Positions 4,496-47,523 of a stretch of 64,000 bases of DNA are shown here, in pieces. The position numbers and the translations under genes were made by a program. Under the pieces are notes generated by a model. It did no database searches. It was not told where the DNA came from and saw only the letters and a program-made list of their open reading frames with translations. The stretch's first letter is position 1. Each line of letters begins with the position of its first letter. Source of the DNA: Cirrosporium novae-zelandiae (Eukaryota); contig JAPETS010000018.1 in NCBI GenBank assembly GCA_026023565.1, positions 1-64,000 of the forward strand. Direction: 5' to 3'.

Positions 4496-7400
4496 ATGGT
4501 GGGACTAGCTGAGCTTCCACTTCCACCTCTACCACCTCCACCTGCACCGCCTGCTGCAACCCCACAGCCACCAATCGAACGTGGGTTTTCAGTTGGACAT
4601 CAAAGGGTTGAGCTCGACATTGACTTTGCGACGCGCAGCTTAAGAGGGTCAACTGACATTACCATCCTCCCTCACTCTAAGGATCTAAAGCATGTGCGGC
4701 TCAACTGCAGACAATGCAAATTGACTCGGCTTACAGTCAATAATAAAGCTCAGAATTCCGAGTACAAGGAACCCTATAGGAATCTGAAGCTACATTTTCA
4801 AAGCAGCATTCACCAATACCACATTTTGGCAAAGAAGGCTGAGAATTTCAAGCAACCACCGGAAGGAGAGTTAGTGATAAATCTTTCCAAGAACGTGCGC
4901 ATAGATGAACTTGACCCGGAAGTATTACCAGATGCTCCAGGCTTGGTAAACGGCGTGACGAGGAAGAATTCGGATGATGCAAACGCAGGAGATGGCTTGC
5001 AAACACCAAGGCCGGTAGAGCAGGTCGCAAGGTTTTCACCAGTTGAGGTCCATATCGAGTTTTCAATCACCGATATTCGTGATGGGCTTCACTTCGTCGG
5101 TCTTGAAGACGGCGATTCTCGATATCCACATGCTTATTCGCGGCATTCACCCTCCGGTTCTGCTTGTTCTATCTTTCCTTGCGTGGATGATTTCGCTTCC
5201 CGACATACTTGGGAGTTTCAGATACGATGTGCTCGAACACTGGGTGATGCCTTCAGTCATCGAAGGGAACATGGAACTAGTAGTAATGCTATTCATAGCA
5301 CCTCGAATAGTGTCCATGGACCTCTTACTAATGGAAACCACGCTCATGGTAGGGGACACACTTCTCATGGAAAGCATATCATACACAAGAATTTTAGTCC
5401 AGAAGATGCTGCACTAGAGATGATGGTGATATGCTCCGGGGACATGACGGATGAGGTAATTCTTTATCAGGTCCTAAGCTAGGAATAATAGGCTAACTGT
5501 CACTGCTATAGATTGTGGACGAAACTGATCCATCGAAAGTCAAGGCCTCTTTTCAGTGCACTACACCGGTCGCACCTCAACATATTGGGTTTGCCGTTGG
5601 TCCATTCGAGCATGTCAACCTCTCCGAGTTTCGTGAAAGCGATGAAGACGACCATCTTGGACAAAATGCAATACCCGTTCATGGCTACTGTCTCCCCGGT
5701 CGAGCCGAGGAAGTTAGGAATACGTGTATTCCTATGGCAAAGGCCATTGACTTCATTACCATTGAATACGGGTCTTATCCGTTTTCGAGCTACAAAATGT
5801 GCTTTGTAGATGATTTGACGACTGATGTATTCAATACGGCTGCTTTATCGATATTCAGCAATCATCTCCTCTTCCCGGAAGAGATAATTGACCCTATCGA
5901 CAACGTTACCTGGGTTTTAGTCTGCGCACTAGCTACACAATGGATCGGTGTCAACATTCCCCCTGACGAAGCTCGAGATTTTTGGTTAGTCATGGGCCTT
6001 CCAGGTTTCATAGCAGGCTCATTCATCAAGAAGCTGTGTGGCAATAACGAGTATCGATATCGCCAGAAAAAAGTTGCAGATGAAGTGTGTGAGCTCGATG
6101 TAAATCGCCCGTCACTACATGAACTAGGTCCGATTTTGTCAATAGACCCGTCGGAGGCACGATTTATGGCTATAAAAGCGCCTTTGGTTCTTTTCATCCT
6201 GGATCGCCGCCTTGTCAAAGCTAGCGGACATGCTGGGCTAAATCGCATTATCACAAGGCTGTTTCTCAATGCCAAAGTTGGAAAGGACCTTCCCAATGGC
6301 GCGATATCAACGGCATATTTTCAGAGACTATGCGAACGTTTTGGTCATGCTAAGCTTGATACTTTCTTCCAGCAATGGGTTTATGGAGCTGGCTGTCCTC
6401 GGTTTGAAGTCACCCAAAGATTCAATAAAAAGAAACTGGTTGTGGAAATGCTCATAGTCCAGAAGCAAGGCGTCTCCGCTGATCCAAAGGATCTTGAGAA
6501 GGATAATTTTATACGTGACGTTAAGGAGGAATTGAATACAGTTTATGCAGGGCCAGTACAACCAGTATTCGCTGGGCCGATGACAATTCGGATTCATGAA
6601 GCAGATGGAACACCCTATGAGCATATCGTTGAGATACGAGAAGCTACCACCAAATTTGAAATACCTTATAATACTAAATATAAGCGTTTAAAACGAAGCA
6701 GGCGACAGAAGGAACGCGCAGCAGCAGCGTCCGGGGTAGATTTCTCAACAGAGGGTCATGATGATGTGCTACTATACTCCCTTGGTGATGTTCTGCAGTC
6801 TGAGGATGAGATCGCTGCATGGCAATTAAGTGACTGGAGCAAAGAAGACGAAGAACGGATGTCCCAAGAATCATATGAATGGATTCGTATGGATGCTGAC
6901 TTCGAATGGATTTGTCGAATGGCTTTCGGTATGCCCGGTTACATGTATGCATCGCAGCTACAACAGGATCGAGATGTCGTCGCCCAGCTTGAGTCCGTAC
7001 ATTACATTGGTCGCCAAAGAAAGCAACCTCCAATCATACCCACACTACTAGTTCGCACACTCATGGATAGAAGGTACTTTCATGGGATCAGGACTACTGC
7101 TGCAGAACTCCTAGCCAATTCAGCTAGAGAGGAGCTCAATTGGATGGGATTGAACCTTCTCGAGAAGGCTTTTCAAGAGCTTTTCTGTTTTACTGACTCC
7201 CCAATGACCCGCTCAAACGACTTTTCCGATAGGTCTTCCTACCGCATTCAGTGCGCAATTATCAAGGCTATTTCTAAAGTACGTGACAACAGCGGTAGAG
7301 CTCCATTGCGTGTCAAACGATTTCTACTTGATAAGTTGAAGTTCAATGACAATTCAGATAACGAGTTTTCGGACTGCTACTATGTCACGACAATCTTAAA

Positions 7401-8455
7401 TGCTCTGACGGACAGTTTCCTCTCAAAAACGGAGAACACGGGGTATGATTTTAATTACGACGAAGAAGAAGAAAGCGATGGTGCATTGTTGAGATCCTGT
7501 TTGGAAGAATTGGAACGATATAGACGAATGGATGAATGGCTTCCGTCATTCCAAAATATCTATGCACGAACAGCATTAGGCTGCAAGAAGCGTCTTGCCC
7601 AAGCAGGGCGTATCAAGGTGACTGCCGCTGACTTCCTTCAATACACAAGGGAAGGCACTTTTGATTTGCTACGCTTGGACGCATTTAGGGAGCTTACTGA
7701 CATGGGATCATTGAAGCATGGAAATATTATGCAGTGGTTTCTCTGGGTGTTATCGCATGATCCATCTCCTTTCGTTCGTCAGGTCATGCACAGACTCTTA
7801 GGGCTTGGACTGGCATCTATAGCATTCGGAGAAGGGATGCAATCAGATGAAGCACCACCCCAAAGCGGATTAATTATTGAACAAGAGAGCACAACCACTG
7901 CGCGGCAGGAACAGCTGTCTAGAAAACAGACAATAACGGGTGCCATGGCCGCTCTTAAGGTTGAATTGAGTAATAATCTAACTATGAAAAAGTCTTTTTG
8001 GGAAGCTACGACTTCTCCAGCGATTGGTATCGAGGAGGTACGAGATTTATTGGTCATCTGTCGTGTCCTTTATGATACGGTAGATCGCATGATGATTACC
8101 ATGAATCTTCCTCGTTACTGGAAAGTGGAGAGTCTCGGACGCGTAAGTTCTATTTTTCTATCTCGATACTTTAAACAAATTTGCTGAGCCTATATAGGGA
8201 AAGCTTAAATTTTCTCGATCCGATCACATCCGGACTAAGCTTATACCCAAGTTCGAGAGGAAGCAACTTCTTCCGTCCCTAAGTAGACGCGATAGTGGTA
8301 GTGGAGGTGCAACTGGCCCACGTCTTACGCTGAAGCCTCCAAAAACAAAAATGCCAACCTCATCCACGCCAGGACCAGGCCCTTCTGTTCGTATACCTTC
8401 TGAGGGCAAGCCGCTGAAATTAAAGTTAAAGGTCGGATCACGGCCATTGCACTAG
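4496..8455 (+). CDS. TAF2: Transcription initiation factor TFIID subunit 2 (M1-aminopeptidase-like fold)
   Basis: ORFs 4496-5482 and 5515-8187 joined by introns 5456-5511 and 8143-8197; motifs HQRVELDIDF, FPCVDD, QRFNKKKLVVE, GPMTIRIHEADGTPYEH, YEWIRMDADFEW, KFNDNSDNEFSD; stop TAG 8453-8455. Confidence 0.95.
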
Positions 8456-14333: not shown

Positions 14334-17300
14334 ATGAAGATGACCCAACATCTTCCTTCCAGGGATTTGCCTCAAAACGAAGTCGAGATGTCAGATATTG
14401 AGGAACTTTCTGTTGGCGATGGAAATGCATCATGTTTAGGAGTCAGCGGCAATAAGTCTCAATTTAAGCCTAATACTTCTATGCATACATCTGTTCCGTT
14501 GGAATATCCGACGCATTACTTCCAAACCCCAGATAATGATGGGATTTCCGAACCCACAAATAACGATACTAAGTCCGAATATGAAACTGATAGGGATAGC
14601 AATGGGAATTTACGAAATAGTTTACGAACATCCTTATCCATGTCCTCACGAACATCGACACTAAAATCATCTACTCCACAGTTGCAAGATAATGCAGCTA
14701 AACAAGATACCGAGCATTTCCACAGAAGGACGGGTACTAGAAAATCCCTAAACAAGGCAACAAATCATCGACCCAGAGCTTTAATTCCTGGTGGAGTAGT
14801 TACAGCGGAATATGCACGAGAAAGCGTACGTGCTGCATATGCTTCGCGACTAAATCCTTATGCCTTACATCCGGAAGAATATCAGCTTCTCCGTTCCACC
14901 TTACCACATCGTCATGTCACAACCTATCTTAATATTAGGAATGGTATATTACGCCTCTGGATAAGAAATCCTCTCGTTATCGTTACACAAGAAGAGGCTA
15001 CAGGTTGCGCAAAAGAATATCGTTTCCTCCAGCTAGCAGAGATAGCTTACGAATGGCTACTACGAAGAGGTTACATCAATTTTGGCTGTGTCGAAATACC
15101 AAACCCTCCTAGGCGGCTCCGTCGAAGGCTTGATAAACAGAAGACAATTGTGGTTATTGGAGCTGGAGCTGCCGGGTTGGGTACTGCCCGACAGATTCAA
15201 AGCGTACTCATGCAGCGTTACGAAAAATCATCTGCTGGAGAGATGATTCCAAAGATAATTATTCTAGAAGGCAGGAATAGAATTGGAGGTCGAATATATT
15301 CATATCCTTTGAACAAAACGATTTCAAATTCTTTACCACAAACTATGAGAGCTACAGCAGAAATGGGAGCGCAGATAATAACAGGCTTTGAACAAGGCAA
15401 CCCACTCCATGTATTGGTTCGGGGTCAACTTGCATTGCCCTATCATAGCCTCAGGGATGTTTCTACCTTGTATGATGTGGACGGCTCAGCTGTGGACCAT
15501 GTCCGAGATGAAATGGTTGAAAAGGTTTATGATTATATTTTAGAAAAGGCTAGCGAATACCGATCTAAACCTCACGAGGAGAAGACATTTGAAGGGAACA
15601 AAGACCTAGTTGATGGTGGCCGTGACGTCTCAGGGGAGGACGGCATTACAATAGCCGAACTGGAGCAGGGGAATATTCCAGACGCTACTTTTAAAACCAA
15701 ATCGCAGCGAAAACGTGTTACCGGGGTGGACAAATTGACCAGGAAAATCCATTTATCTGAGAGCACTCCCGATACAAAAACAGTTGCAGAGACGATGCAA
15801 AAAGCTGGCTGGAACTTGAAGCCGGGAAATACTTCAGAAAATAACATCAATCTGGAGGAAATCACGTCCGGAACCCGTTATCCCCGTTTAGGTGATGCCA
15901 TGGATGAAGGGGTTAGGCAATTCCAACAGATAGTTAACCTTACGCCACAGGATATCAGATTAATTAACTGGCATTTCGCTAATTTGGAGTATGCAAATGC
16001 TGTAAATGTCAACGAGCTCAGTCTGGGTAGTTGGGACCAAGACGTGGGACACGAGTTTGAAGGCGAACATTCTGAAGTTATTGGTGGCTATCAGCAAGTT
16101 CCTCGGGGACTCTGGCGTTTCCCAACAGAACTTGATATCCGGAAGGAGAAAGTTGCTATTCATATACAGTATGATGCCGTGTCATCCAATAGTTCAGGAA
16201 AGATTATATGTGAGGATGGTGATACCTTTGAAGCAGATCGTATTGTCCTTACTGCCCCTCTTGGTGTTCTCAAAGATCAGAGCATTCAGTTCAGCCCTCA
16301 ATTACCGGGCTGGAAAACGGACGCTATTAGTAGACTAGGGTTTGGTCTTTTAAACAAGGTCATCCTTCGTTACGAAAAAGCATTCTGGGATACTGATAGA
16401 GATATGTTTGGCCTCCTTCGAGACGCAAAAATCCCAAGCAGCCTGAATCATAAAGACTATGCATCACAACGTGGTCGGTTTTATCTTTTCTGGAACTGCA
16501 TCAAAACAAGCGGGTGCCCAACACTTATTGCCTTGATGGCAGGGAAATCGGCTGAGCAGTGTGAATCCACAGACGATGATGATTTAATCCAAGAAGTCAC
16601 TGGGCAGCTACGCAACATGTTTGGTGTAGACAATGTACCTGAACCAGAAGAAACCATCATAACTCGCTGGCGCAAAGACCGTTTCGCTCGGGGCACATAT
16701 TCATACGTTGGAACAGAAGCTGTAGCAGAAGACTACGACGCCATGGCTCGTCCAATCGGAAATCTCTACTTCGCGGGCGAAGCTACATGTCGTACTCATC
16801 CTGCCACCGTCCATGGTGCCTACATTTCTGGTCTCCGCGCAGCGTCAGAGGTTGTGGATTCCCTCATCGGACCTATCGAAATCCCAACCCCACTAATCCC
16901 TCCTCGAATTAAAGCTTCTAGCTCTACCACTACCCCCATTACCGGAACTAAGCGCTCTTCTGACAACAACTCAATTTCTAATACCATTACTAGCGCTAAG
17001 CCTCTCACCCCCGCTCAAATATACGAAGAGGGTATTTTGGATGCTATTTACACTCAAATTGGCTTCCGACCGCTGAAACCCTCAAAGACGGGTGTAAACC
17101 CCTTTCTACTCTTTCAGAAAGATCACTGGTTTGATTGTAAGGCCATGCTCGATACTAAGGCGGGAAGCCATGAGATTCGAACGACGTTGGGAGCCATGTG
17201 GAGGAGTGCAAACGAAGAGGAGAGGAGACCATATATAGAGAGTGCGGCGAAGCAGCGGGAGGTCAATGGGGACATAGAAACAAAGTGGAAGAAGATGGTT

Positions 17301-17378
17301 GTGGAGTGGGATTCTAAGGCTTCGGAAATTAAGACGAAGTATATAGAAAGGAATCCCTTGGTAGAGGATCCTAAGTAG
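14334..17378 (+). CDS. LSD1: Lysine-specific histone demethylase 1-like (SWIRM + FAD amine oxidase + HMG box)
   Basis: SWIRM segment (YLNIRNGILRLW..NP, RRGYINFG), Rossmann VIGAGAAGL, EGRNRIGGR, WHFANLEYANA, FAGEATCRTHPATVHGAYISGLRAA and C-terminal HMG-like NPFLLFQKDHW. True start uncertain. Confidence 0.93.
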   Translation: MKMTQHLPSRDLPQNEVEMSDIEELSVGDGNASCLGVSGNKSQFKPNTSMHTSVPLEYPTHYFQTPDNDGISEPTNNDTKSEYETDRDSNGNLRNSLRTSLSMSSRTSTLKSSTPQLQDNAAKQDTEHFHRRTGTRKSLNKATNHRPRALIPGGVVTAEYARESVRAAYASRLNPYALHPEEYQLLRSTLPHRHVTTYLNIRNGILRLWIRNPLVIVTQEEATGCAKEYRFLQLAEIAYEWLLRRGYINFGCVEIPNPPRRLRRRLDKQKTIVVIGAGAAGLGTARQIQSVLMQRYEKSSAGEMIPKIIILEGRNRIGGRIYSYPLNKTISNSLPQTMRATAEMGAQIITGFEQGNPLHVLVRGQLALPYHSLRDVSTLYDVDGSAVDHVRDEMVEKVYDYILEKASEYRSKPHEEKTFEGNKDLVDGGRDVSGEDGITIAELEQGNIPDATFKTKSQRKRVTGVDKLTRKIHLSESTPDTKTVAETMQKAGWNLKPGNTSENNINLEEITSGTRYPRLGDAMDEGVRQFQQIVNLTPQDIRLINWHFANLEYANAVNVNELSLGSWDQDVGHEFEGEHSEVIGGYQQVPRGLWRFPTELDIRKEKVAIHIQYDAVSSNSSGKIICEDGDTFEADRIVLTAPLGVLKDQSIQFSPQLPGWKTDAISRLGFGLLNKVILRYEKAFWDTDRDMFGLLRDAKIPSSLNHKDYASQRGRFYLFWNCIKTSGCPTLIALMAGKSAEQCESTDDDDLIQEVTGQLRNMFGVDNVPEPEETIITRWRKDRFARGTYSYVGTEAVAEDYDAMARPIGNLYFAGEATCRTHPATVHGAYISGLRAASEVVDSLIGPIEIPTPLIPPRIKASSSTTTPITGTKRSSDNNSISNTITSAKPLTPAQIYEEGILDAIYTQIGFRPLKPSKTGVNPFLLFQKDHWFDCKAMLDTKAGSHEIRTTLGAMWRSANEEERRPYIESAAKQREVNGDIETKWKKMVVEWDSKASEIKTKYIERNPLVEDPK

Positions 17379-31417: not shown

Positions 31418-32503
31418 TCATGACGATACATCATCAGTTTTTGGTACACCAGTTCCTCCTTCCTCCCCGCCCTGGCCAGATTTATGCTTCCTCTTTCTTT
31501 TTCTCCGTTTCGTTTCCCCTTCTCCCTCTTCACGTGAGGGCGGCGTCCCATCGGTAGGTTGTTTCTCATGCACAGAGACTTCATCAGTCTTTACTAATTT
31601 CGCCTCTCCCTTGGTATTTTCTTGTTTCCTTGCTAACACTTCCAGTCCCTCATTCACCTTTTTCTTGGATTTCTTAACACTCAGTGGATTTGGTTCTTTG
31701 GGGCCCTTTTGCTTTCTCTTCTTCTTGATAGGCTCTTCTTCCTGTGTGTTTTGTGCCTCTGGCCCATCCTTCTCTTCGGCGGCCCCCTCGCCGTTTTCTC
31801 GCTTTCTCTTCACTCCACCAGCCCCCCTCCTCTTTCCCTTGATACCTTCCCTAAACTTTCCCCTCTCTAGCCCATCTCTGAACTTTTCTGTCGCGTCTGC
31901 CATTGGCTCCATGACCATCACGCTCTTCTTAATATACACAAGTGGCACTCCTGGTATCTCTCTCAGATCCCTCCGTAGTTCTTGTTCCTGTGTAGCAACC
32001 ACGAGTCGATGCTTGTTCACTCGATTGGATTTGGTATCGACGACAGAGGTGATGCAGTCAAGTTCTGAGAGCGGTTCGGGGAGCTCGTGGTGGTTACAAC
32101 GACGGCGTTCGTACGATTTTGCAATGTCGACGATGTGCGGGGAGGGAGGGTCAAGCTTGTAGAGGTGGCGCATGGAGCATTGTGTTATCACTGTGAAAAA
32201 TCTGGTCAGTGAGGTCTCGGGGAGGTTTGTAAAATAAATATTGAGAGCGTTTATATACTTGGCTTGACTTTTCCATGTAATGTTCTTTCTAGTCCTCCAA
32301 CGAGATCCATCTTGAAGCGCTCGGCATCCTGGATTATCTGTGCATCGACTATGATATCAATAGTATATGTTAGCTTCAGAAGATTATTGTAAAGGGCATG
32401 TTATCAAAATCATACGCAGGACTTGATATGGTTCTCGGAAGCCGAAGTGCAGCGCATATTGCTGCATCAGCTTCCGATATTGTTTCGATCGCTTTCCTCT
32501 CAT
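31418..32503 (-). CDS. UTP23: rRNA-processing protein Utp23 (PIN/Fcf1 family)
   Basis: MRGKRSKQYRKLMQQYALHFGFREPYQVL|VDAQII, LERTLHGKVKP, ITQCSMRHLY, ERRRCNH, LREIPGVPLVY, KGPKEPNPLSVKKSKKK; two introns. Confidence 0.95.
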
Positions 32504-34569
32504 AATGAACAGAGGAGAGGGTTAATCGTTGTTATGAAAGTGGGGTTCTCATTGATTGATATAAGGAAACGAGATTCAAGATTGTTGAATTGGCAGCTTG
32601 TAACTCATTGGAGCTTGGTTAATTAATTTTTTTGAAGATGGGGAAATGCGACGCTAACCGAGCTTTGCTATTTACCACCAACTTAGCATGATGATTCAAC
32701 TCTTAAGAATACTCATTATTATTTTCACAATACTTTGAGTCAGAAGCTAACTACCAAAGAAGTGATGGTTCTCTACTCTTCCCTATAATCATAAGTCTCA
32801 CTACATCTCTTATTCAAATTTGCTTCTCACCACTACAGCTAAGGACTTATAGCACTCTCTCAATCAGTTGAAATCATTTTTGAAGATAATCATTAATACA
32901 ATAACCATGGATTCGAAAATATTTTTTTCATTACTAACGTAGTTTCAAGTTAGCTAGCTAAAGCCACTACCAGTAGCCTCTCACAATAACTGAAGATGTG
33001 TTTAGGCGTAATAGTGATTGAGCATTTCCTTTTTTGGTATGACATGTCCTGGTATAAAACCTAGTTGGCCCCCTAACAATTTCTATCTTTCCTTGAATAT
33101 CCATAATTAACATTTGACTTTTGAATCTATTATCCAAGGACGCAATGAATATACAACTGGGGTTTCTTATAGCGCTTGCCGTTTGCATCGGAAACGCAAC
33201 ACCACTTAACCCCCGAGACACTGTGTTGCTGTCATGTACATGCCATTCCACCATTCGCGATTGTCTTGCAGCATGCAACACTGCTTCACGTTCTCCACTC
33301 TATCATTCTAGACCGAAGACCTAGTACACAGGCACTTATCGCATCTACCACAACAACAGTATACAAACCTACATACAAAACTATCAACAAAATAACGGCC
33401 ACTACTATAAAATTGTCAGCTAAACCGATTCCGAAAACAGCTTTCCCAGTAACTACCACAATGATCTTATAAATCTGCCCTATATAAGCATGTTTGGATA
33501 GAAAGTGATTATCATTTTCACAGTACACTGATAGCTGAGATTTACGAGAGCGCTAACAAAGGATCCGTAGAACTTATTGAGAATATGAGGTTTTTCTATG
33601 TGTTCACATATCTATGCTATTTAATACATATGCACCTTTACGATTGAAAGGGATTACAAACTGGCAAAGAGATCGCAGGTCTTAGGGGTCATTGCTACTG
33701 AAACCCCTAAGTCACTAAAAATAGTGTTAGGCTCTGTTTTCTCGCCGTGGAGCTAAACATGCATGTCCTAAGCATAGTTGAGCTATGCTGACTTGAAATT
33801 TGCTCCTTAGATATTTTTCCCCATTCGTGGCTCCTTAGATAGAGGACAGGAGTGACATGAGTTTTTATTCAGTTGCCGTGCATTAAATTTTATAACACCA
33901 AGGTGCTACGTCATATTCATTCTACCATCTTAGCTATCTTACCTAGGTATCTAGCATATTACTCTATTAACCACAGCATTTCACAGAACCTCATACCTTC
34001 TAAAGATCTCACACTAATCTAAGAACTCAGCTAAAGCAGTACACCCAAACCCCAATTGGAGTAGCATCTTCTCTCATTCAAAACTATTAGACTGAACATA
34101 CGACACTAGGAAATCTTATTCTAGATCAAAGCGCCCTGGTATCAGAGGGAGCTATAGTAACATTCATAACCATAATGACCTGTCTTGGAATAGGAGAAGT
34201 TTAAATAGTACATCTTGTTATAAAAAATTATCAACCACCTTTCATGGCTTATATAACTAGTCTAGTTACTAGGGGAAATGAAATTGGAAAGGTAATCCCT
34301 ATGTCTGTTAGCATACAGTTGGAGCTTTATTCCTGAAACAATCAATCAACTATGTAGGTAGGCCTACGACAATCACATCGTGAAGAGGCCCTAATTGAAA
34401 CAATGACCAGAATAGATAGACAAGGCAGCAAGGTCAACAGCCTTTGAATCTAATCTAACCAAGTCGATAAACCCCACCAATTTTCCACAAGTAAAAAAAC
34501 CAAAAAAATATGTTCAAGATCCTACACCTTTCTTACACAAAAACAAAAAAATTGTCTGAAGACAGGATT

Positions 34570-34707
34570 TGAACCCGACCCGATTTGAACGGATAACCTA
34601 TTAAAGTTGAATGTTAGCCAATTGTTGTACAGGTATTCGTTTTAACCTGTTGGGTGAATTTACCTTCTGATCTGGAGTCAACTGCGCTACCGTTGCGCCA
34701 CGGGTCC
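34570..34707 (-). tRNA. tRNA-Trp(CCA), copy 1, with a 66-nt insert (34598-34663) in the variable loop
   Basis: Exons GGACCCGTGGCGCAACGGTAGCGCAGTTGACTCCAGATCAGAAG + GTTATCCGTTCAAATCGGGTCGGGTTCA (44+28=72 nt) fold into a cloverleaf with A and B boxes; T-run terminator downstream. Confidence 0.92.
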
Positions 34708-34773
34708 CTTTACTTGTTGAAGTTGAAGAAGATTATTTCCTATTTTTAACCCCTTCTTCAAAATGCAATTTTT

Positions 34774-34796
34774 GGGGGGGGGGGGGGGGGGGGGGG
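34774..34796. repeat. Poly-G tract (23 nt)
   Basis: Read directly; similar tracts at 1-21 (poly-C) and about 935-948. Confidence 0.9.
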
Positions 34797-36152
34797 ATGG
34801 CATGATTTCTTGTTTTGTAATATATTAATTGAGGTTATTTACCTGTATTTTTGGGGATTAGCGCCCATGCGAGTGTGTGTTTTGTTTTGGAACCTTATTA
34901 GGTTTGGTTGGAAAGTCTTATCTTATCATCATGTGAACAACAAAGTTGTACGGATAATGATATTCCCCTTATCCTATCTATTTTTTATTTTGAATGTGGA
35001 ACTAACTGATACTATTTCAATTATCAAAAACACGTTGATGATGAAAAACCCACTAACCGCTTGAACACATGGCCTTGCTCTCTCTTTTAAAAAATACCCA
35101 AGCTCCAGAAGCTTCATATGAGCTTGGTGTTGTGTGCGCGCGTGCGTGTGTGTATGTGTGTGTGCTTCTTACAAGAGGAAAATCACACGACTGATTTTTT
35201 TTCATTAAGATGTTAGTTTTTTTTGTAGCTATTGTTGCAAAGGTACAGTAACAAACAAGAGAGAATTTGTTGTTGCTTTCTTACAATATATATACGCCTT
35301 CCTTTGTTTTACGAAATATTCACACTTTAAAGAATGGCCTATCTTTGTTATTATTGGATACTGCATGTCTTCGAGGGAACAAAGTGAAAAAGAGGGTGGA
35401 TATTACTATTATGATAAATATTGGTAAGTTACATAGATAGGAAATATGTATGCAGCCGACTCCTTCATGGTCTTTTGAGGACTAATAGGTTATAATCGGC
35501 TACTTACTTTTATCCTTTTCTTATATATGCTACTCGTTCTTTGTTAAACGATACGATATATGCTTTTGACTTCAATCTGCTACACTCTGGTCTGAGCATC
35601 GCTATCAACGATTGGTTCTCTCCAAGCCCATAAAAAATGCCCCAGCTAGAGTTAGGCGAGCTGAGTGAAGTCAATAATAGGTATACCGCTAGACTTACGA
35701 TGACCTATATCCTACGAGACTTGTTAGAGTGCCGAGTTGACTTATGCGACAGGATGGGCTGCCTTATCCTTACTAAATCTTAGCTACTATGATAACGTGT
35801 GTCTAGGCTAGCCCTTCTATGTAGGCTAGGACATAGAAATGCATAACAGAAAAAAATTGGGATATTCTATGGCGCAACAACGGGTGGAATAACTGAACCA
35901 AGGGTTTGAAAAAAGCGATAAAAAGATCAATGGTTCCCATGATAAATAATAATTCCTAACCATGCTTCTCTACTTCTTTGGCATGATGAAATCTAGGGAC
36001 AATTCAACCTACCAAGAGTCGCACAACACTACCAAAGTCCCACAGCAGAATATCCAATGCCCTGCAGAGTCTTTTCTAAAACTCATCGTATTCTAGACCG
36101 TTCCGATACCAAATATGAGACTAGACTTACCCATCCTTACGCCGCTCAAAAT

Positions 36153-39100
36153 TCAAAAGGTATCAGAAGTTAGATCCTCACGATCCCCTGACTCGACATC
36201 ATTCCCTCTCGAATTATTTTCTGGCTTTCTTCTCAGGGATAACATTGGCTGCATTGATTCTTTCATTCTTCGAGGAATATTTCCAAACCTAGACAATCTT
36301 TTAGTGTTTGGGATCCTTATAGAACGCATGCAAAATGAGATGGCTTTGAAATCTTTTACCCACAGCCAAATATTTTTAGATCCGAACGATCTTCCAGTAT
36401 CATGAACCCTTATATGAAGGACCGCATAAAGTATGATAGCTGTGATGGAAAGCGCAACTGCAGCAGTTATAACCATCGAGATGACAAGTTTGTGGTCCGG
36501 AACACTGCCCATACTGAAAATGCTTGTAGCAAGTCCTACAGGTAAGAAAAACACCGTTGTATATGTGAAAAGTTGAATGTTTTCAGCTTCTCGAAGAGAT
36601 GTGTCGGCGCGTAGGCCATCTTGGATGCTTTGGACCAAGGTGATAAGAAACTCAATCCGGCTTTTCTGAGTCTTGAGCTTGCTGATACTTCTTCCATTAA
36701 AGGCAAGTTGTCGATTGATAGTACGTCGGTACTTCGTTTCATCGCTCCGTGTCCACCTGGGTTGTTCGTAACCACGGACCTTTTCTCGATTCTCCCAAGA
36801 GTCTATATACTCTAAAATTGAGGCAAAGTTACTCTTCAAGGTAATCAACACTCGTAGAAGTTCTTGGAGATCTTCGATCTTGTAGGCATTGAGACTGAGT
36901 TTGCGGGAAGGGTTCTTTTTCCCGACTCCACATGTTTCCTCAGTCTCGTTGATGAATTTTTTGGCGTTCTCAGAGATCACTACCAAAATGCGATCGAAAA
37001 GGATGAGCTCCGATATCTTTCTTTGCTGCCAATGGTCGTGGTTGAGGCCTTTCTCCCAGAATCTCTCGTTCTCGCTAGGCGGGGGATTTAATTCTGATAA
37101 TTCACCATCCTCAATCTCACGATCTTCTGCTTTCAATGGTTCACTCTTCGCAATATTACGATTTGTGTTCTCAATAATATAAGAAGTCCAATATCGGTCG
37201 AAAAAATCCCCAACAATTCGAAAGCCCATAGTAGCTTCAGAAATATGAAAGCTTATACCATTAGGAAACGAAAATATCGTTCTTTTAGTGGAAAGTGTAT
37301 CTTGGTCACTTTGAACAAGTTCGGATTTTACGAACAGATAATAATTGAGATGAAGTTCTGTCTCCCAAGTATTCAAAGCAGCCGTTGCGTTGTCAATGAA
37401 GAATCCTCTAAGACTCATATGTCGGTCAAAGAATTGGGAAAGGTGTTCCCTTTCCACTTCTGGTGAAGTCAGATAACAGATTAAAGCGGTTTTGCGATCT
37501 GCTCCATCGAGATATATAACCCGTTTCTTGATAGTGTCTGCCGTACGCTTTTCATTTAACTTTTCCCAAATCTCCCTATGTGAAAAATAGGACTTTGCTG
37601 AAAAGGGCATGCTACTGCCTTCTCTCTTTCCTTTGTGTTGGTGCTTTGGGATATCGCATATCGCAACTCTCCCACTTTGAAAGGTTTCATTGTTAAAGTA
37701 ATTTCCAGTCACAATGCTGTTTGCTGTACAGTTCTTATCGGAGCAAATATTGGTAATGATCCCTCCACATCTATCCTTTAGTTCCTCTAAAGCCTTACCG
37801 ACATCCTTTAAGGTCTGTGGGGGTTTAAAATCTAGAAATCTGGGATAGTTGTACAACCATTCTTCAGAAATCTCGACGATGTTACTTGAATCTAGAAATT
37901 TAGAGGATAGCATACGTCGTTTGAAAGAAGAGGGTATAGAGACAACACTGCCATCGTTCCGAATGCCTAGATTCCTGTCTGTAGCTATCGACATTTTTTT
38001 TCCCTAGTCCGCTACTCTCTTCTTTATCAGATAACAGTGGATTATATTCGATATCATTTGGGTTGGGCGAGGAATGCATTAGAGGATTGGTTATTACCAG
38101 CTGGCGTTTTGACTGCCTATCCGGAGTTAGATGAGGCATAGGTCTATCTATTGTGATCTCAAAGTTCAGGCTGGGTTTTTTGTTGACTTCTTGTTTAGAT
38201 ACCAAGAGTAAGATATAAGGGATCTCGAACCCGGCGTGAAAGTAAAAATCCCGGTATATCTCGTGGTCAAAAACCCTTGGTTCTTTGGTCTCTTCGTCTA
38301 TCTGGCCTGGAAAGCATCCGTTTGCAGCAGCGGAGTCAAATAGGATTTGTCGAGCATGGCCAATAATTTTAGATGGGGTATACTGTCTGTCTAGCCTATG
38401 GCCCTTAATGCCCATTAAAATAGCTAGAGCATAACGTAATGGATTGTTCCACAACGATTCATCATTTTCATATTCATAAAGTTGTTGGTAATCGATAAGA
38501 TTGTGCCATAAATTGGAATGAGGTTCATCTGAAAAGAAACCTTGATCCATCCCGTAGTATAGTACGGTATCACGTGAGTGAAACAAAAATCGGGTCTCTT
38601 GAGCGGACCGAGTAACACTAAGCATTCTTTTTCTTGATACATCGTTCTCGGTAGTGAACCTCCTCAGAATCTGCTTCTTGGTTTCAGCCGGAGTATATGC
38701 CCATTGTTCATTATTGGAGATATCAACTTGACGGTTTCTTTTTCTTGTACCCCCGAGGTGACTTCTTAGTTTTACAAACTCTTCTAAGACGGGGTTCGGT
38801 GAGGAAATGGATAGTTTTTCAGCTCTTAAAATCAATTTCTCGATAGAATCTAGAGCCATCCAGATCCACACATGATCATCCAAGCGATATGTAGCGATTA
38901 CTGGATTGGTGTTGCGTGGCCATGTGAGAGCGAGACGATTTTTGGTCTTGTTTAATTGCTTGAACCAAGCCTTTACAAGCGAGCCAAGCCATCTCGTCAC
39001 ATATATAAAATCATTCTTTGTTTTGAATACTTCTAAGTATTCGAAAGCTTTTAGGATTTGCACCGGTGTGCTCACCGGCGTGTTAGCTGGCAAGGTTGTT

Positions 39101-40486
39101 TGAGACTCATCCTGGACGATGACTTTTCCATTGACCCAGTAGTTTGATCCGAAGCCATTATCTTCAATACTAGCTTGAGATATCCACTGGAGATGTCCCT
39201 TACAAGTTTTATGTATCCTGATGAGAAGGGATTCGGAGATCGGATACTTGCCTTGGGACTTGTCTAAGTGCTTGAACATTGACAGTAGAAATTTAAAAGC
39301 AAAACTGCGTCACTAAAATCAGATAGCTGTCCTAATTCAATATACCAGAGACTTACAAACTTCCTGACATACAAATTCGATGGTCACCAAAGTCTCCACA
39401 TGTCAATGCGACGGGAGCCACAGGACTGTTAGTATTTTTGACAAAACTGTCATTATCTTCCTTGAGAGGAATACTGCAAACAGACAAGATATGTTCAAGA
39501 TTGCGTCGAAGATACCAGCCTAACTTTTCATCATTCCGGGGAGCCCAGTTAGGAAGTCCAGTTTGGGAATCCTTGATTATTTTATCCACGTCCACATCTC
39601 TGCTTTGTAGTACCGAGTCTCTCCAAGGCAAACTAATGGGTGGTATATGTTGAAGTTTATATGCAACAGTAAGCTCCAGCGACTCAAATGCCTTAAGGCT
39701 ACATTCTTTCAAAATAGAAATGGACCCTTCGTCACCTGGGGATTCCAGCTTTAGAGAGTTGCCGTTCTTGAACACCCCTACGACTGCTCCCACGGGTGTT
39801 GAGTTGTCACCATCCTCCTTCGCTGCCGGGAATCCTATCACCAAAATACCATATCCATACCGCGCCATTGTATAGTAGATTTTGAGTCGGCTTTTCTAAG
39901 TCATATAATCTAGTTCTTGTATATCAAAGTTGATGTCAAGAATAATATCAAAATTGGCGCTTGAACTTGACCTGTTAGTCACTTTAAAGTCCTGTATGGT
40001 TATGCCGTTGTTGATAAGCATCTGAATTTCGATGCTAAGACCGTTGGCATCATATGTAATTCGTGGCCAGCGTTCACCAAGAAACTCTAATTCGGGTGTT
40101 CCGGGTTCTAGATGCTCGAGGGTCCGTATACGCAGTCCAAACCCTTTATTGGGATCTGAAACTGCCTCTTGGAAGCTTTGCGCCCGAGCGTCCACTGAAT
40201 ATGCTTCTTCAGCTTCCGCGAAGTCCAATGCGAATATACCTGGCTGGCTTTGCTTTCCGCCGAGATAGCTACTGGTTCTTAATATTTTCCCGTACGCGCT
40301 GACACTGGCCGTAGTGCCTTGGTCACCGAAGGAAGCATAGGCATCGGGGTTTTGCGTTGAGGACTCTTGCTTTAAGTCATGGGATTTGGGCTCTAGTACA
40401 TCTTAACTCTGAGAGTTAGCAGGAAGGACTTTGGAACTTTTCACCCAGGTACTCACGCGTGACCCATGACTTGAATTCTGGGTCAT
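36153..40486 (-). pseudogene. Large fungal protein with a C-terminal CorA-like two-TM region, apparently disrupted
   Basis: Collinear ORFs 39896-40228, 39353-39868, 37900-39279 and 36153-37994; N-terminal YASFGDQGTTASVSAYG, YRLDDHVWIW, CFPGQID, EEWLYNYPRFL; C-terminal ENIQLFTYTTVFFLPVGLATSIFSM. In-frame TAG at 39896-39898 and a frame change at the A8 run near 37994-38001. Confidence 0.7.
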
Positions 40487-42055
40487 CCTCCGAGGAGGGA
40501 AGATCCTCAAAGTTAATACTAACAGAGCTGTGAAAGATATCCATGCTTGTTCTTTAAAATTGTAGCACTCGAACACATCACGTTAAATTGAAGCATATCG
40601 TCTTGGGGATATCTATAACCAAACAACGTGAAAGCTAAGCGGGATCCCGGACTTGGAGCATCTGAAGCTATATACATGCAAAACTATATCTTAGACTCTT
40701 GGTATCAAGCATCGTAAAGATACTCAGGTGGCGTTAGTTAGATCAATCATGTTGCTAGGTGAAAGTGTGGTGAAGTCTCAACCTTTCACTACACCTCCTA
40801 AAATATTATCTTTCGTACACGTTCGGTCATGTTCCAGTCCAGCTGATAAGCCTTATGTCAGCGAGTAGATCTAGGATGGAAAAAAGAATTGATCTCCAAT
40901 GCAGATCGTTCCCCTCTAAACTACCACTCCGCTCGTATAACGGCCACCCTTGACCTGGTTGTGTTTGAGCTGTACGAAGTTAATTATCCGCCTTTTAGAG
41001 GTCGGAATCACGAAAATATAAAACATCAAGTAAACTAGCTGCAGGTCACCCAAGCCTATTTCCACTTCGGTATTCTAAGTACCTACCTAGGTAGGTATTG
41101 AGTCAAAATCGTTGAAGTGGCTTTAAAGTACCCCTCCGTCGGAATTTTTTCCTCCGATGTCGGGAGGGGGGATTGAGTCACTATGCTCCTTCGGATATAG
41201 AATCCTATAAGCTACCTGTTGTAGCCGCTCCAGATCTTCATGATCACAGCTTCTCTGGGTCTTCTAATAGAGAGCTCGGTCGCCGTCGGGAACAGAAATA
41301 GCATACCAGAAATATAGGTAAACGATAAGAAAAGGGAGCGATGTCTCACGATGTCTCACGATGTCGAAGAATAAGTCTGGAGGGAAAATATGGCCGGATG
41401 CAAGTTAGAAAAAAAAACAATTGACACCAAACGATAAGAATAATTGACATTTATATGTGAACTAGTAGCATTTTATGCAGATAGACCAGTCAGCGTTATT
41501 AACCTGAGCAGGGGAGCGAGTTGGTCAAGAAAAGGATTTTTGATTTCCTAAATAGATATATGATAATAGGACTGAGCGTAGCGAAATATGCGTCCTGCCA
41601 AATAGCAAAGTTAGACCTAGAGTAAGGGGGAACTAAGGAATACTAAATCCACCTGCCATCGTACAGTACAGTCACGGAAGATCGGAGCGGGATGGGAAAG
41701 CGCAAAACCGCCATAGTTCGGTAGGTATTCGGATGTCTACACTACCACCAGCGGAGCCGAAGCCGAGGCCTTGCCTTTTAGCAAACATCCAAAGAGATAT
41801 GTGAGCTCAGCGGTCCGAGGTTCAGGAAAACCCTGATTGTTTCTTATATGACCATCAAATCACATTTCTTACGAACTTCTGTTGTTTTCAATATTATAAA
41901 TTACCGTGCTGTATTTATCTTTACACATTCAATTCAGCCAAGCCCTATCAATTACCTCAATTAATCACGTGTGCGCACATATCCATCCACCCCACCTGCA
42001 ACGAACAATGGAAAAATTGATAAATAAAATAAATAGTGCTATTAATAACAATTCA

Positions 42056-42190
42056 GGACCCGTGGCGCAACGGTAGCGCAGTTGACTCCAGATCAGAAGG
42101 TAAATTCAACCAACAGATAACACAAATACTGTTCAATAATTGGCTAATAATCAACCTAATAGGTTATCCGTTCAAATCGGGTCGGGTTCA
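42056..42190 (+). tRNA. tRNA-Trp(CCA), copy 2, with a 63-nt insert (42100-42162) in the variable loop
   Basis: Exonic sequence identical to copy 1; anticodon CCA at 42088-42090; acceptor stem GGACCCG/CGGGTTC, T-stem ATCCG/CGGGT, T-loop TTCAAAT. Confidence 0.92.
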
Positions 42191-42217
42191 AATCCTTACT
42201 TGCTTCAAGATAAATTA

Positions 42218-42225
42218 TTTTTTTT
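42218..42225 (+). terminator. RNA polymerase III terminator (T8) of tRNA-Trp copy 2
   Basis: T-run about 27 nt downstream of the tRNA 3' end. Confidence 0.75.
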
Positions 42226-43855
42226 GAATAATTATGTCCCTAAATTTATTATTAAGGGATATTTCATATCGTGACGGAGGAAGTTCATCTTATTACTATT
42301 GGCGGATTTGGTATTGGGCTATGCTGTGCTATGTTATGGACTCCCTTGCTGTAAACTATAAGCACTATGTATAAATAGGACTGTATATATATCTATGTAT
42401 ATATATTATCTCATCGTGGAAGATATTATACCCAGGACGTAGAACGCCCCTCGAGACTACTATATTTGATTTCATTGAGTCCCAATTCAGTTTGACTCCC
42501 ATTGTAAAATTTATACAATATCTACTACTCTATCCATTTATCGACCCCGTCCCTGAGAGCATTTCATATACCCTTCTTAATATACCTATGTCATTCTATA
42601 ATGGACATCCACATTTCTCCATCGTCAACTTCATCGTACTCCTTCGAAGATCTCAGTCATATACACACACATCAATAGCCTTTTATGTCCCTTGTTCTCT
42701 TCGTCCCGTAAATGCACCCCGACCTAAAACCCCCTCTGCTCATTACTTGTACACATGACAATTTTAATCTGTACTACTGCTTATAGAAGGGTACGCAATC
42801 ACCCAATTGAAACATGATAGCTAGATTATATCAAAGTAATTGTAACGTCCGCCATAACTTAAAGGCGACATGCAGACAATAAAATGAATAATCACCATCA
42901 AAGTACTCGTGCTCTCTTCCAAAAACATAAGCGGCATTGAGTAGAAGCCAAGCCGGGATCTATATATATCCATCTATAGGTGAATGGATATAGCTCTAAG
43001 AAACGTAGAAGTATAGTTAGTGTAGCTAAAACACGAACCACATGAAATAGATGGTCATGCAATTTGCTACTAGCTCTACTCTATTAGGCACACATACGCG
43101 ATACTAGCTCTTGAGAAAATACGAAAGTATAAAATAAGAAGATATTCATGTCGTTTGCTCATTTCGACATAGGATCACTAACCACCAGCCCCTCATACCG
43201 TTGTCTTCGTCTTTGTCATGCCATACCATCCATGCAAAACGCCCCAACCAAAGATATAGGACCATCTAGGGAGAACCTTGAAAAGGCAGCAAACCCATTT
43301 GAAATATTTCCTAACCTCAACCATTGTAGTGTGGAGTGACGACCCACCAGCAGAAAGAACAGAGGGTCATGGGGTAAACTCTATGGAAAAGAAAAAGAAA
43401 AAGAAAATAGTGAATTTGATACGTTTCTGCACGATGCATATAACTTTGCATGCAGATAATGAGATGGACATGCCCATTTCCTTTCCTGACGCCGATTGTT
43501 ACCCGATATTTGATGAGATCCCTAGGAACCCCAGAAAGGTTGTTTGCGCGTGCATGTACGGTTTCCAGAAGAGACGATGGATTATCCGATGCAAGTAAGG
43601 CATGCATGCATATAAAATTCGATACCTTTAAGAAAAACCCACGGGCACTCCTCTATTATCCGATACCCGGTTTCGTTTCTGCCATTTACTTGCCCTCGTG
43701 AGCGTCATTGAAAATTATCATTATCCCACGCTTTTTAAAAAGGATACACCTAGACTCATACATGATGTTGATGATGCAAAAGGTGCTCCTTTCGTTTCGA
43801 ACAATGTTGATTGAAGCACTCCCCGAGAGCGTATCATTGTGGAGACAAATATAGT

Positions 43856-45262
43856 CTATTGAGATGCACACTGCATCCTTTCCGCACCAGGTGGTACGCC
43901 ATCTTCGTCTTCGTCATCACCGTTAGTGAGCCCTTGCGCTCTGGCTTGATTATGTGCGTCAACATCTTCGAGATCGAAATCCTCTACCATTGCATCTTCG
44001 GTGGGTTTAGCTTGCGGCATTCTGGGCGGCAGGATTTCCTCCAACTTTTCAATGTTTCTCATTTCACCCTTTTGAGGAAACTTGACGTCGAATTGGATAT
44101 AAAGGTTGCCGAAATCGTGATGGCGATAAGACGGCATACCTTGTCCCCGAATCATTTTGACTTGACCTAAAAAACCATATTAGAAAATTTGGTCTACAAA
44201 GCATATCCTTGGAAAGAAATTTACCTGGACTAATGACCTCGCCAGGAAGAATGTTGACTGTCAACCAGCGTTCATCTAAGTGCTCAATGTAGATTGCACC
44301 ACCGGCCAATGCAGTCAGAAGATCAATCTCCGAGTGGTAAAATAGATCGTCGTCCTTGCGCTGGAATCGGGCATGAGGCTTTTGTTCAATTTCAAATTGC
44401 ACATCGCCGGGTAGTAAGCCAGGTATTTGATCTCCTTCACCTTTAAAGTCGATCTTTGTTCCACTCTTAACACCCCTGTCGACATGTACATGAAGTACCT
44501 TCCGCTCGACAATTGTCTTCTTGCCTTGGCATTTCTTGCAGCGGTCTTTATCGCGAATAGTCTCCCCTTCACCTTGGCAATCTGGGCACACGGTCTGGAA
44601 CCGCTGGATCATAGGTCCCATTTGCCGCATCATAGTCTTCATACCCGCACCATTGCATCCAGGGCAAGTTTTGACAGCACCCTCTTTGCCGCCACGACCT
44701 TCGCAGGAACTGCAGATAACAGACTTCTGTAGAGCAAGTTTTGATACCTTTCCTCGATAGATGTCTTCAAGGGAGACTTTGTGAACATGGTGGATTGTGC
44801 GAGCTTTCTTTGGGCCTGTTTCTCTCATTCCGCCACCAAACATTCCGCCAAAGGCGCTGCCGCCCCCGAAGAATTGCGCGAAAAGATCCTCAGCAGCCAT
44901 GCCACCCCCAGCACCACCTTGCTCCAGACCCTCTTCACCATATTGATCGTACAGTTGGCGTTTCTGGGGATCAGAGAGGACTTCGTATGCATGCGAAAGT
45001 TCCTTGAATTTTTCTTGAGCGGCTTCATTGCCTTGATTTTTATCTGTGAAGGAATATTAGACACTAAATCCTAGTGACAATGTATCATGTGAATCAGTAC
45101 CTGGATGCCATTTTAGTGCTCCCTTTTTGTAAGCAGATCTTAATTGTGCTTCCGAGGCATCTGGTGGAACCTATAGATGAGGTTTGTTAGATTCGCACAT
45201 TCAGTAGGCAGGACAAAATCACATACTCCCAGAGTCTCATAAAATTTTGTTTCCTTAACCAT
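43856..45262 (-). CDS. YDJ1: Type I Hsp40 co-chaperone Ydj1/Mas5
   Basis: MVKETKFYETLG J-domain with spliced HPDK, G/F region, CxxCxGxG zinc-finger repeats and C-terminal CaaX box CASQ. Confidence 0.97.
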
Positions 45263-46737: not shown

Positions 46738-47523
46738 CCGTATGGATTGAATCGAATAGAGGATTAGAAGCTCTATAAGTCTATGACTGATGTGACCTTA
46801 TCGTACCGTTTGATAGACTATCGCATACTCACATTCTTATGAGCAACTCATAGTACTAAAATTTCTACATTATTAGATGAAGACGGCCCGATACCAAGCC
46901 CAATCCTAGACTAAGTTACTGTGGACAGCGTATGATACTCTAATCCATAGTATATTTGCCCTGGAACTGCCGATATGAAGAATACAAGTACACAAGGTCC
47001 ATAAATTAGAAATATGGTGAAAGGTAGGTAGCCTAATAAGGCACTACATAGCAAGGACTAGTGATGGACTCGAGTTGACTATAAACACCTATCCAATTAA
47101 AATCAGAAAGTTATCGTAAAAGACTAGATATAAGATGAAAATAGTAAAAGTGAAGCATCATTAAAAAATTAGAATGTTTTGTTGTTGCGTTTTTAATCCT
47201 CATTGGTGGTCAGGGTTAAAAATGTATAATCATATGCAGTATAGGGGAAAATAAAAATTATTGGAAACATACCAGGACCACAGTTTAGGAAAACACCGTG
47301 CTGTCAGGTGTAAGCTTTGGCTCCTTATCAGCAATGGCAAAGTGTAGCTACAAATAATTTCTTAGCGTTGAATATATTTCATCCAGTCATTTGTTCATCA
47401 TCTATGGACGGGCATTCCTCAGGTAACGGCGCCAAGCGTAGCGTCGCTGATATGAAAACCATGAACCCACAATTAGCACTCAATGACCTGAGATACATCG
47501 ATCTCCCACGAGATTCTCCTAGT

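Follow-up and report, generated by a model that had tools for sequence, protein, structure and literature searches.

A candidate spliceosomal-type intron in the variable loop of two tRNA-Trp genes of a Pezizomycotina fungus

Introns of the mRNA type were reportedly found in the U6 small nuclear RNA (snRNA) genes of fission yeast and other fungi by Tani and Ohshima in 1989 and 1991, and spliceosomal introns in the nuclear ribosomal DNA (rDNA) of mostly lichen-forming ascomycetes are said to have been described by Bhattacharya et al. in 2000. Here two tRNA-Trp(CCA) genes, copies A and B, are examined in a 64-kb stretch (the window, meaning the whole stretch of DNA that was analysed) from a metagenome-assembled genome of Cirrosporium novae-zelandiae, class Xylobotryomycetes, Pezizomycotina. 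Both genes are interrupted by a short insert that begins with GT and ends with AG, and the reading favoured below is that the insert is a spliceosomal-type intron in functional tRNA-Trp genes. This reading, in which the use of RNA polymerase III (Pol III) for transcription, removal by the spliceosome and the origin of the intron are all deduced from the sequence, is put forward as evenly balanced between being right and being wrong.

In the part of PMC5855946 at hand, spliceosomal introns are known in Pol III-transcribed U6 genes, in U1, U2 and U5 genes and in RNA polymerase I (Pol I)-transcribed rRNA genes of ascomycetes, and an origin by reverse splicing is proposed for those of U6; the hosts listed in that part are U6, U2, U5, U1 and rRNA, with no tRNA among them. 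The inserts described here resemble the fungal U6 introns of that account in being short GT-AG elements with a branch site in a small conserved Pol III non-coding gene, with exons tens of nucleotides (nt) long, and in that reverse splicing is the proposed origin. They differ in their host, which is a tRNA, whereas U6 is a component of the spliceosome at its catalytic centre, and in that splicing is predicted here from the letters of the DNA. The ascomycete rDNA introns come from the same subphylum, Pezizomycotina, and are likewise ectopic spliceosomal introns outside genes of RNA polymerase II (Pol II); yeast removes such a lichen intron from Pol I transcripts, according to the portion of PMC8527467 at hand. 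Those introns lie in Pol I rRNA genes, whereas the present hosts are Pol III-type tRNA genes, possibly the only ones that the organism has for tRNA-Trp.

What marks the non-canonical tRNA introns known from archaea, red algae and nucleomorphs is a bulge-helix-bulge where exon and intron meet. The present inserts are like them in that they would lie outside the anticodon loop (PMC3978253, as far as the excerpted text goes) and unlike them in that the bulge-helix-bulge is absent from copies A and B and from a related gene of another organism, L008. Canonical tRNA introns, as set out in the available text of PMC10275265, sit between N37 and N38, lack conserved motifs at their ends and depend on a structure in which N32-35 pair with the intron as an anticodon-intron helix, both cleavage sites fall in 3-nt bulges and an anticodon-intron (A-I) pair is formed. 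The inserts share with them a small size, presence in all isoacceptor copies seen, a TTGG complementary to the anticodon and the lack of a long T run; they differ in that positions 38-45 would precede the insert, in that GT, branch and AG signals are present, and in that the A-I pair and the bulges are absent. Reviews separate the eukaryotic intron types into spliceosomal introns of Pol II transcripts and tRNA introns at 37/38 removed by a protein endonuclease (PMC10275265 for tRNA, in the text at hand), and a recent preprint treats the types as unrelated in the part available. A literature search, which returned mostly listings and abstracts, gave no description of a spliceosomal intron in a tRNA gene.

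Both loci were recognised by the Rfam tRNA model, for which the gathering score is 29, and no further tRNA gene was found in the window by Rfam at E up to 5. ARAGORN in default mode reported no tRNA gene in the window, and it called copy A as tRNA-Trp(cca) only if introns were allowed or the insert was removed. The features of the two loci are listed below in window coordinates; in the motifs that follow a caret marks an exon-insert junction.

34570..34707 (-): copy A, tRNA-Trp(CCA) gene with insert; Rfam RF00005, 44.1 bits
34664..34707 (-): copy A exon 1 in the variable-loop reading (tRNA positions 1-45, 44 nt); same bases in copy B
34598..34663 (-): copy A insert, 66 nt, GT...AG, placed in the variable loop; five equivalent cut registers
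34658..34663 (-): copy A donor-like GTAAAT with exon AAG directly 5'; 5/6 match to GTAAGT
34618..34621 (-): copy A TTGG, complementary to anticodon CCA and G37; kept in L008
34613..34619 (-): copy A branch-site-like GGCTAAC, branch A 16 nt before the last insert base
34606..34610 (-): copy A intronic TCAAC, perfect complement of GTTGA at positions 27-31; a stem strand in ARAGORN -i
34598..34600 (-): copy A acceptor-like TAG, followed by exon G; read from the sequence
34570..34597 (-): copy A exon 2 (positions 46-73, 28 nt), with GTT, T arm, acceptor strand and discriminator A; same bases in copy B
34545..34551 (-): copy A run of seven T (T7), Pol III-type terminator, 19-25 nt 3' of the gene; read from the sequence
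42056..42190 (+): copy B, tRNA-Trp(CCA) gene; Rfam tRNA, 41.7 bits
42056..42099 (+): copy B exon 1, from the sequence
42100..42162 (+): copy B insert, 63 nt, from the sequence
42163..42190 (+): copy B exon 2, from the sequence
42218..42225 (+): copy B run of eight T (T8), downstream; read from the sequence

Exon 1 carries an uninterrupted anticodon stem-loop, GTTGA CTCCAGA TCAGA, followed by A44 and G45. When this proximal TCAGA is taken as positions 39-43, positions 38-45 of the tRNA precede the insert, which begins after G45 at AAG^GT, the exon context of a proto-splice site. With AGGT repeated at the two junctions, cutting in any of five registers (43/44 to 47/48) yields an identical product, GT...AG being one of the five. 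Removal of GT...AG leaves a 72-nt product that is called tRNA-Trp(cca) by ARAGORN and is identical at positions 30-48 to the intronless tRNA-Trp genes of L003, a locus of another eukaryote. Because positions 38-45 come before the insert and the product agrees with these intronless genes, the insert would lie in the variable loop, outside the canonical 37/38 site, as long as the proximal TCAGA is read in this way; the 37/38 location appears in the ARAGORN reading, which uses the distal TCAAC instead. The insert-free product forms 20 of the 21 cloverleaf pairs, the exception being G27.A43, and all universal tRNA bases are present.

The ends and the interior of the inserts carry signals like those of an mRNA intron. 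The donor reads AAG^GTAAAT in both copies and AAG^GTAAAC in L008. The branch motif of A is GGCTAAC, its branch A lying 16 nt before the insert end, and that of B is GGCTAAT, at 15 nt; both inserts end in AATAG to form a TAG^G junction (CAG^A in L008). Among 127868 random 66-mers drawn from the window, 25 started with GT, finished with YAG and had CTRAY at 8-35 nt from the end; the number fell to 3 of 127868 when a match of at least 5/6 to GTAAGT was also demanded. The same signals were found in an mRNA intron of the organism itself:

5456..5511 (+): TAF2 mRNA intron, 56 nt, GAG^GTAATT...GGCTAAC...TATAG; confirmed by homology

This intron rests on a deposited protein, P0121, that maps with 100% identity on both sides, and on TAF2 homologues of other classes (P0122, P0124 and P0126) that are gap-free across the junction when compared by eye without an alignment tool. 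The branch A of its GGCTAAC lies 15 nt before the end and its donor, like that of the tRNA inserts, has no G at +5. The signals of the tRNA inserts thus closely match those of the organism's own confirmed mRNA intron. Four further mRNA introns of the window, one annotated and three deduced by bridging of open reading frames (ORFs), are 42-71 nt long; the tRNA inserts are 63-66 nt with 29-33% GC, against 42-71 nt and 29-41% GC in the five window mRNA introns. A second TAF2 intron, at 8143-8197 (+) and 55 nt long, is without a CTRAY branch motif.

The two copies were then compared with one another, which bears on most of what a preliminary description of copy A had claimed. The 66-nt insert quoted there corresponds exactly to window 34663..34598 (-), and the 72 exonic nt (the first 44 nt as exon 1 and the last 28 nt as exon 2) are, as stated, identical in A and B. 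Between the two inserts there are 9 substitutions and 3 one-base indels, leaving 54 of 66 positions identical, which bears out the many differences claimed for them, and GTAAATTCA, AATTGGCTAA(C/T) and TAATAG are indeed common to both. Conservation does not, as had been proposed, break exactly at the splice model: identity of A and B continues past the junctions, for 9 nt of the insert at its 5' end and for 6 nt at its 3' end. Neither insert has four consecutive T (the longest run is 3 in A and 2 in B), as had been noted; this is uninformative because 71% of random 66-mers of the window (30255 of 42624) are also free of TTTT. A short hairpin inside the insert is kept by different pairs, ACAGGT/ACCTGT in A (34626-34647 (-)) and AACAG/CTGTT in B (42115-42134 (+)).

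The 12 differences between A and B are all confined to the insert, and the 72 exon bases carry none; the chance of this is (66/138)^12 = 1.4e-4. The flanks of the two copies cannot be aligned, with a shared stretch of about 6 nt only, after the discriminator, and a repeat search of the window confirmed that the two loci have only the gene in common. The exons contain TGGCGCAACGG and GTTCAAATCGG, presumably the internal Pol III A and B boxes, and the T7 and T8 runs lie 19-28 nt 3' of the two genes. Because all 12 differences lie in the insert and T runs follow both genes, both loci look functional, as the preliminary description had supposed, and their status as functional tRNA-Trp genes is supported by these sequence features.

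Several observations concern the surroundings of the two genes. The stretch shared after the discriminator is AATCCT (34564-34569 (-) and 42191-42196 (+)), and the gene end together with AATCCT reads GGGTTCAAATCC, which resembles a second T-loop motif. Copies A and B are in inverted orientation around genes at 36153-40402, and both lie in stretches of about 3.6 kb (~32400-36100 and 40400-44000) of lower G+C, 0.39-0.42, with no ORF longer than about 127 codons. A run of 23 G is present at 34774-34796, about 70 nt upstream of copy A; an assembled contig of the sequencing run X1, introduced below, ends nearby, and the run of G may be an artefact of sequencing or assembly with no biological origin.

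Related genes were sought in other sequence collections. A metagenome scan with exon 1, a free gap of 42-72 nt and exon 2 gave no match, and scans of genome contigs and of viral contigs gave none each. A second metagenome scan gave eight loci, L001-L008. Six of these (L001, L002 and L004-L007) have no variable-loop insert, five being ordinary tRNA-Trp genes and L005 having no recognisable T arm. L008, a metagenome locus from another organism, has a 52-nt insert at the same site that starts with GTAAAC, keeps TTGGCT and ends in CAG. Of 66 positions it has 38 in common with the insert of copy A, where 500 shuffles gave 31.8 +/- 2.2 with a maximum of 39, and by this alignment it is homologous to the inserts of A and B. 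The proximal anticodon stem of L008, TCTGA/TCAGA, is perfect, and its T stem shows, when read by eye, compensatory double changes relative to copy A at 49-65 (A-T to G-C) and 52-62 (C-G to T-A). These two changes indicate that insert-bearing genes have been kept under tRNA selection in both lineages.

The remaining locus, L003, is a cluster of three tRNA-Trp genes at 146-217 (+), 240-347 (-) and 502-573 (+). In the middle gene AAG^GT is again the place of an insert, here an unrelated one of 36 nt, GTAGCA...TCTAAC...AAT, which does not end in AG. This gene has T-stem and acceptor defects, lies between two intact genes and, from its sequence, looks like a pseudogene. An insert at the very same AAG^GT hints that this site is prone to insertion.

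The gene was looked for in the DNA contigs of a sequencing run, X1, that holds 98% of the sampled words of window positions 34000-43000 (157048 records, 35.7 Mb) and that may be the source of the window. Five pieces of these contigs match the gene at a likeness of at least 80%, and all five come from copies A and B. A joint free of the insert did not appear among the 157048 records, of which the search filter drops some. The same search detected a 37-nt, 86%-alike piece of exon 1 that ends inside the gene in the run of another organism, organism B, and no matching piece in the run of organism C.

The favoured reading can be put as a sequence of steps. Both loci would be working nuclear tRNA-Trp(CCA) genes, presumably transcribed by Pol III from the A and B boxes to the downstream T run, with a GT-AG intron of 66 nt (A) or 63 nt (B) between G45 and G46 of the variable loop. 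The precursor would be recognised at AAG^GUAAAU by U1 and U6 and at GGCUAAC or GGCUAAU by U2, and at UAG^G. Excision of the intron as a lariat and joining of the exons would yield a tRNA of the standard 72 nt whose variable loop, AGGUU, has the usual 5 nt. The intron would probably have arisen by reverse splicing into the AAG^GU proto-splice site of the tRNA-Trp variable loop, followed by reverse transcription and recombination. The full form of this proposal is that a Pezizomycotina fungus relies on the spliceosome for its only tRNA-Trp genes, their Pol III pre-tRNA containing a lariat intron that was gained by reverse splicing and inherited for long enough to be shared with L008; this fuller form is tentative and, in our estimate, falls a little short of an even balance.

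If the intron is truly spliced in this way, it would be the first mRNA-type intron known in a tRNA gene, and tRNA would join the short list of non-coding spliceosomal hosts (U6, U1, U2, U5 and rRNA). The supply of an essential single-codon tRNA would then be tied to the splicing machinery, and intron gain at a proto-splice site would have a clear example in nature. The usual tRNA finders miss the gene (ARAGORN in default mode) or force a 37/38 intron upon it (Rfam alignment and ARAGORN -i). Because such genes are missed or misread, similar variable-loop introns may lie hidden in fungal annotations.

A number of observations weigh against a spliceosomal intron. The spliced tRNA would have a poor anticodon stem, with the G27.A43 mismatch and a U28.G42 wobble, and its anticodon hairpin is calculated at +0.5 kcal/mol with 4 base pairs (bp) or +2.6 with a forced fifth, compared with -2.6 in L008. 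This stem is weakened by bases 27-28, which in L008 and L003 are TC; here they are GT and complete a perfect 5-bp helix with the intronic TCAAC, which is kept in both copies. ARAGORN -i adopts this GTTGA/TCAAC helix. As in introns of the endonuclease type, there is a complement of the anticodon, the TTGG that adjoins the branch motif, and it is kept in L008. The donor is without G at +5. In L008 the branch motif is degenerate (CTCAT), the GT-AG register gives A46 instead of G46, and the gene has further defects (A19, C55 and a C6.A67 mismatch) and may be decaying. That A and B are the only tRNA-Trp genes is suggested by the contigs and not proved by them, the genome being metagenome-assembled and the search filter dropping records.

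Selection on the signals is likewise not significant. The 14 signal positions hold 1 of the 12 differences between A and B, where 2.5 are expected (P = 0.21), and selection on three signals is not demonstrable from a comparison of only two copies. The preliminary description had taken the donor, branch and acceptor signals to be under selection. The signals themselves are real, matching the TAF2 intron, while the selection claimed for them is not demonstrated at this P value and the branch motif is not kept in L008. Its interpretation stands in part, having left out the position outside 37/38, the weak anticodon stem and the possibility of a canonically placed intron. Should the genes depend on the spliceosome, TCAAC, able to take the place of the anticodon-stem strand, and TTGG, able to pair with the anticodon, could be signs of a fold of the precursor by which the donor stays accessible, or of a lineage that stands between removal of this insert by the spliceosome and removal by the endonuclease. 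The lineage may be moving from one route of removal to the other.

The main rival is that the insert would be a canonical 37/38 intron, removed by the tRNA splicing endonuclease and joined by ligase. Exon 1 would end at G37 and the intron, of 60 nt (A) or 58 nt (B), would run from ATCAGAAGGTAAAT... to one base before the distal TCAAC. TCAAC would then form positions 39-43 of a mature tRNA of 78 nt (A) or 77 nt (B), with a variable loop of 11 nt, TTTAATAGGTT, in A or 10 nt, CTAATAGGTT, in B. ARAGORN, when introns are allowed, returns just this model, as i(36,60) in copy A and i(36,58) in copy B. The GTTGA/TCAAC stem is a perfect 5 bp at -1.8 kcal/mol, against +0.5 when the insert is placed in the variable loop, and its pairs 27-43 and 28-42 are compensatory relative to the TCTGA/TCAGA of L008 and L003. 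The rival gains weight because placing the insert in the variable loop leaves a weak anticodon stem. The intron TTGG pairs with CCA and G37 in the minimum free energy (MFE) fold, as is usual for such introns, and 37/38 is the only eukaryotic tRNA intron position described, both according to the available text of PMC10275265.

The structure that the endonuclease needs is, however, absent. No bulge-helix-bulge was found in 15 tests (five registers in each of A, B and L008), the central helix reaching at most 3 of 4 pairs and the outer helix having length 0. Under the two 37/38 readings the central helix has 0-1 of 4 pairs, 1 of 4 in the TCAAC one, and there is no A-I pair. TTGG can pair with CCA and G37 but is 4 nt out of register, and it turns up in 3-5% of shuffles of the A and B inserts (0.05 for A, 0.03 for B; 0.23 for L008), while 12% of the shuffles of the insert, which is rich in A and C, yield TCAAC. 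In the MFE fold GTTGA finds further partners in other A/C-rich stretches of the insert, and the MFE folds of the precursor are no better than those of shuffles (z = -1.4).

The mature tRNA would also be odd. Its variable loop of 10-11 nt would have no stem and would differ in length and sequence between otherwise identical genes, N38 would be T in one copy and A in the other, and every other tRNA-Trp seen here has a variable loop of 5 nt. The first 8 nt of such an intron would be identical to positions 38-45 of a standard tRNA-Trp. Its first 17 nt hold none of the 9 intron differences (P ~0.04, hypergeometric, calculated by hand), and L008 has the same base at 13 of these 17, the remainder of its insert being only about half alike. 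L008 itself cannot be read in this way, since its variable loop would be 2 nt, and ARAGORN -i finds nothing there. Finally, unless it is a relic, the set of GT, branch and AG signals would have arisen by coincidence, at a chance of ~2e-4. On balance a canonical 37/38 intron is considered unlikely, while carrying real weight. Its second form, in which TTAAT serves as positions 39-43 (the Rfam alignment of copy A, with a forced 37/38 intron), was rejected at +1.7 kcal/mol in A and +4.4 kcal/mol in B, and is also ruled out by an A31.C39 mismatch in B and the missing central helix.

A further rival is that the loci are not sources of tRNA-Trp at all, being disabled genes or binding sites for TFIIIC and Pol III, with a normal gene elsewhere in the genome. 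The genome is metagenome-assembled, the anticodon stem is weak, and decayed-looking tRNA-Trp copies with inserts do exist (the middle gene of L003 beside its two intact neighbours and, in part, L008), all of which would fit. Against this, the exons are free of differences between copies whose flanks are unalignable, the universal bases and the 20 cloverleaf pairs are in place, and terminator T runs are present at both loci. In addition, no other tRNA-Trp-like contig was found among the X1 records that pass the filter, by a search able to catch the 37-nt piece elsewhere. This rival is accordingly judged quite improbable.

Marginally less probable again is excision from the variable loop by a protein nuclease, whether the tRNA splicing endonuclease working off-site or a different one, with ligation as in the archaeal, red algal and nucleomorph introns and with accidental signals, for even though non-canonical tRNA intron positions exist elsewhere in nature (PMC3978253, in the part at hand), GT-AG is only one of five registers with the same product and the L008 register one base to the right of GT-AG gives the more usual AGGTC loop, the reading is opposed by the failure of all 15 bulge-helix-bulge tests, by the ~2e-4 chance of a signal set that duplicates the organism's own mRNA intron and by a search of the literature, mostly of listings and abstracts, that found no fungal non-canonical tRNA intron position.

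Other kinds of element were considered and rejected. An origin by tandem duplication was set aside since the insert is longer than the tRNA segment that could be duplicated. The insert is not a repeat or introner, as blastn against the window returned for each insert only the other and chance matches of at most 13 nt. A group I or group II intron was dismissed, as no such Rfam family was found in the window at E up to 5 and 63-66 nt is far too short.

The window also contains features that touch neither tRNA gene. An intronless gene for an LSD1-type histone demethylase lies at 14340-17375 (+) and encodes SWIRM, amine-oxidase and C-terminal HMG-box domains. The best named relatives of the LSD1-like and TAF2 proteins of the window, at 48-54% identity, are from lichen-forming and other Pezizomycotina classes, and a TAF2 protein identical to that of the window is attributed to the metagenome-assembled genome of Cirrosporium novae-zelandiae. 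A C/D-box small nucleolar RNA was found at 47156-47237 (-), where it matches Rfam Afu_298 at 58.8 bits (gathering score 40).

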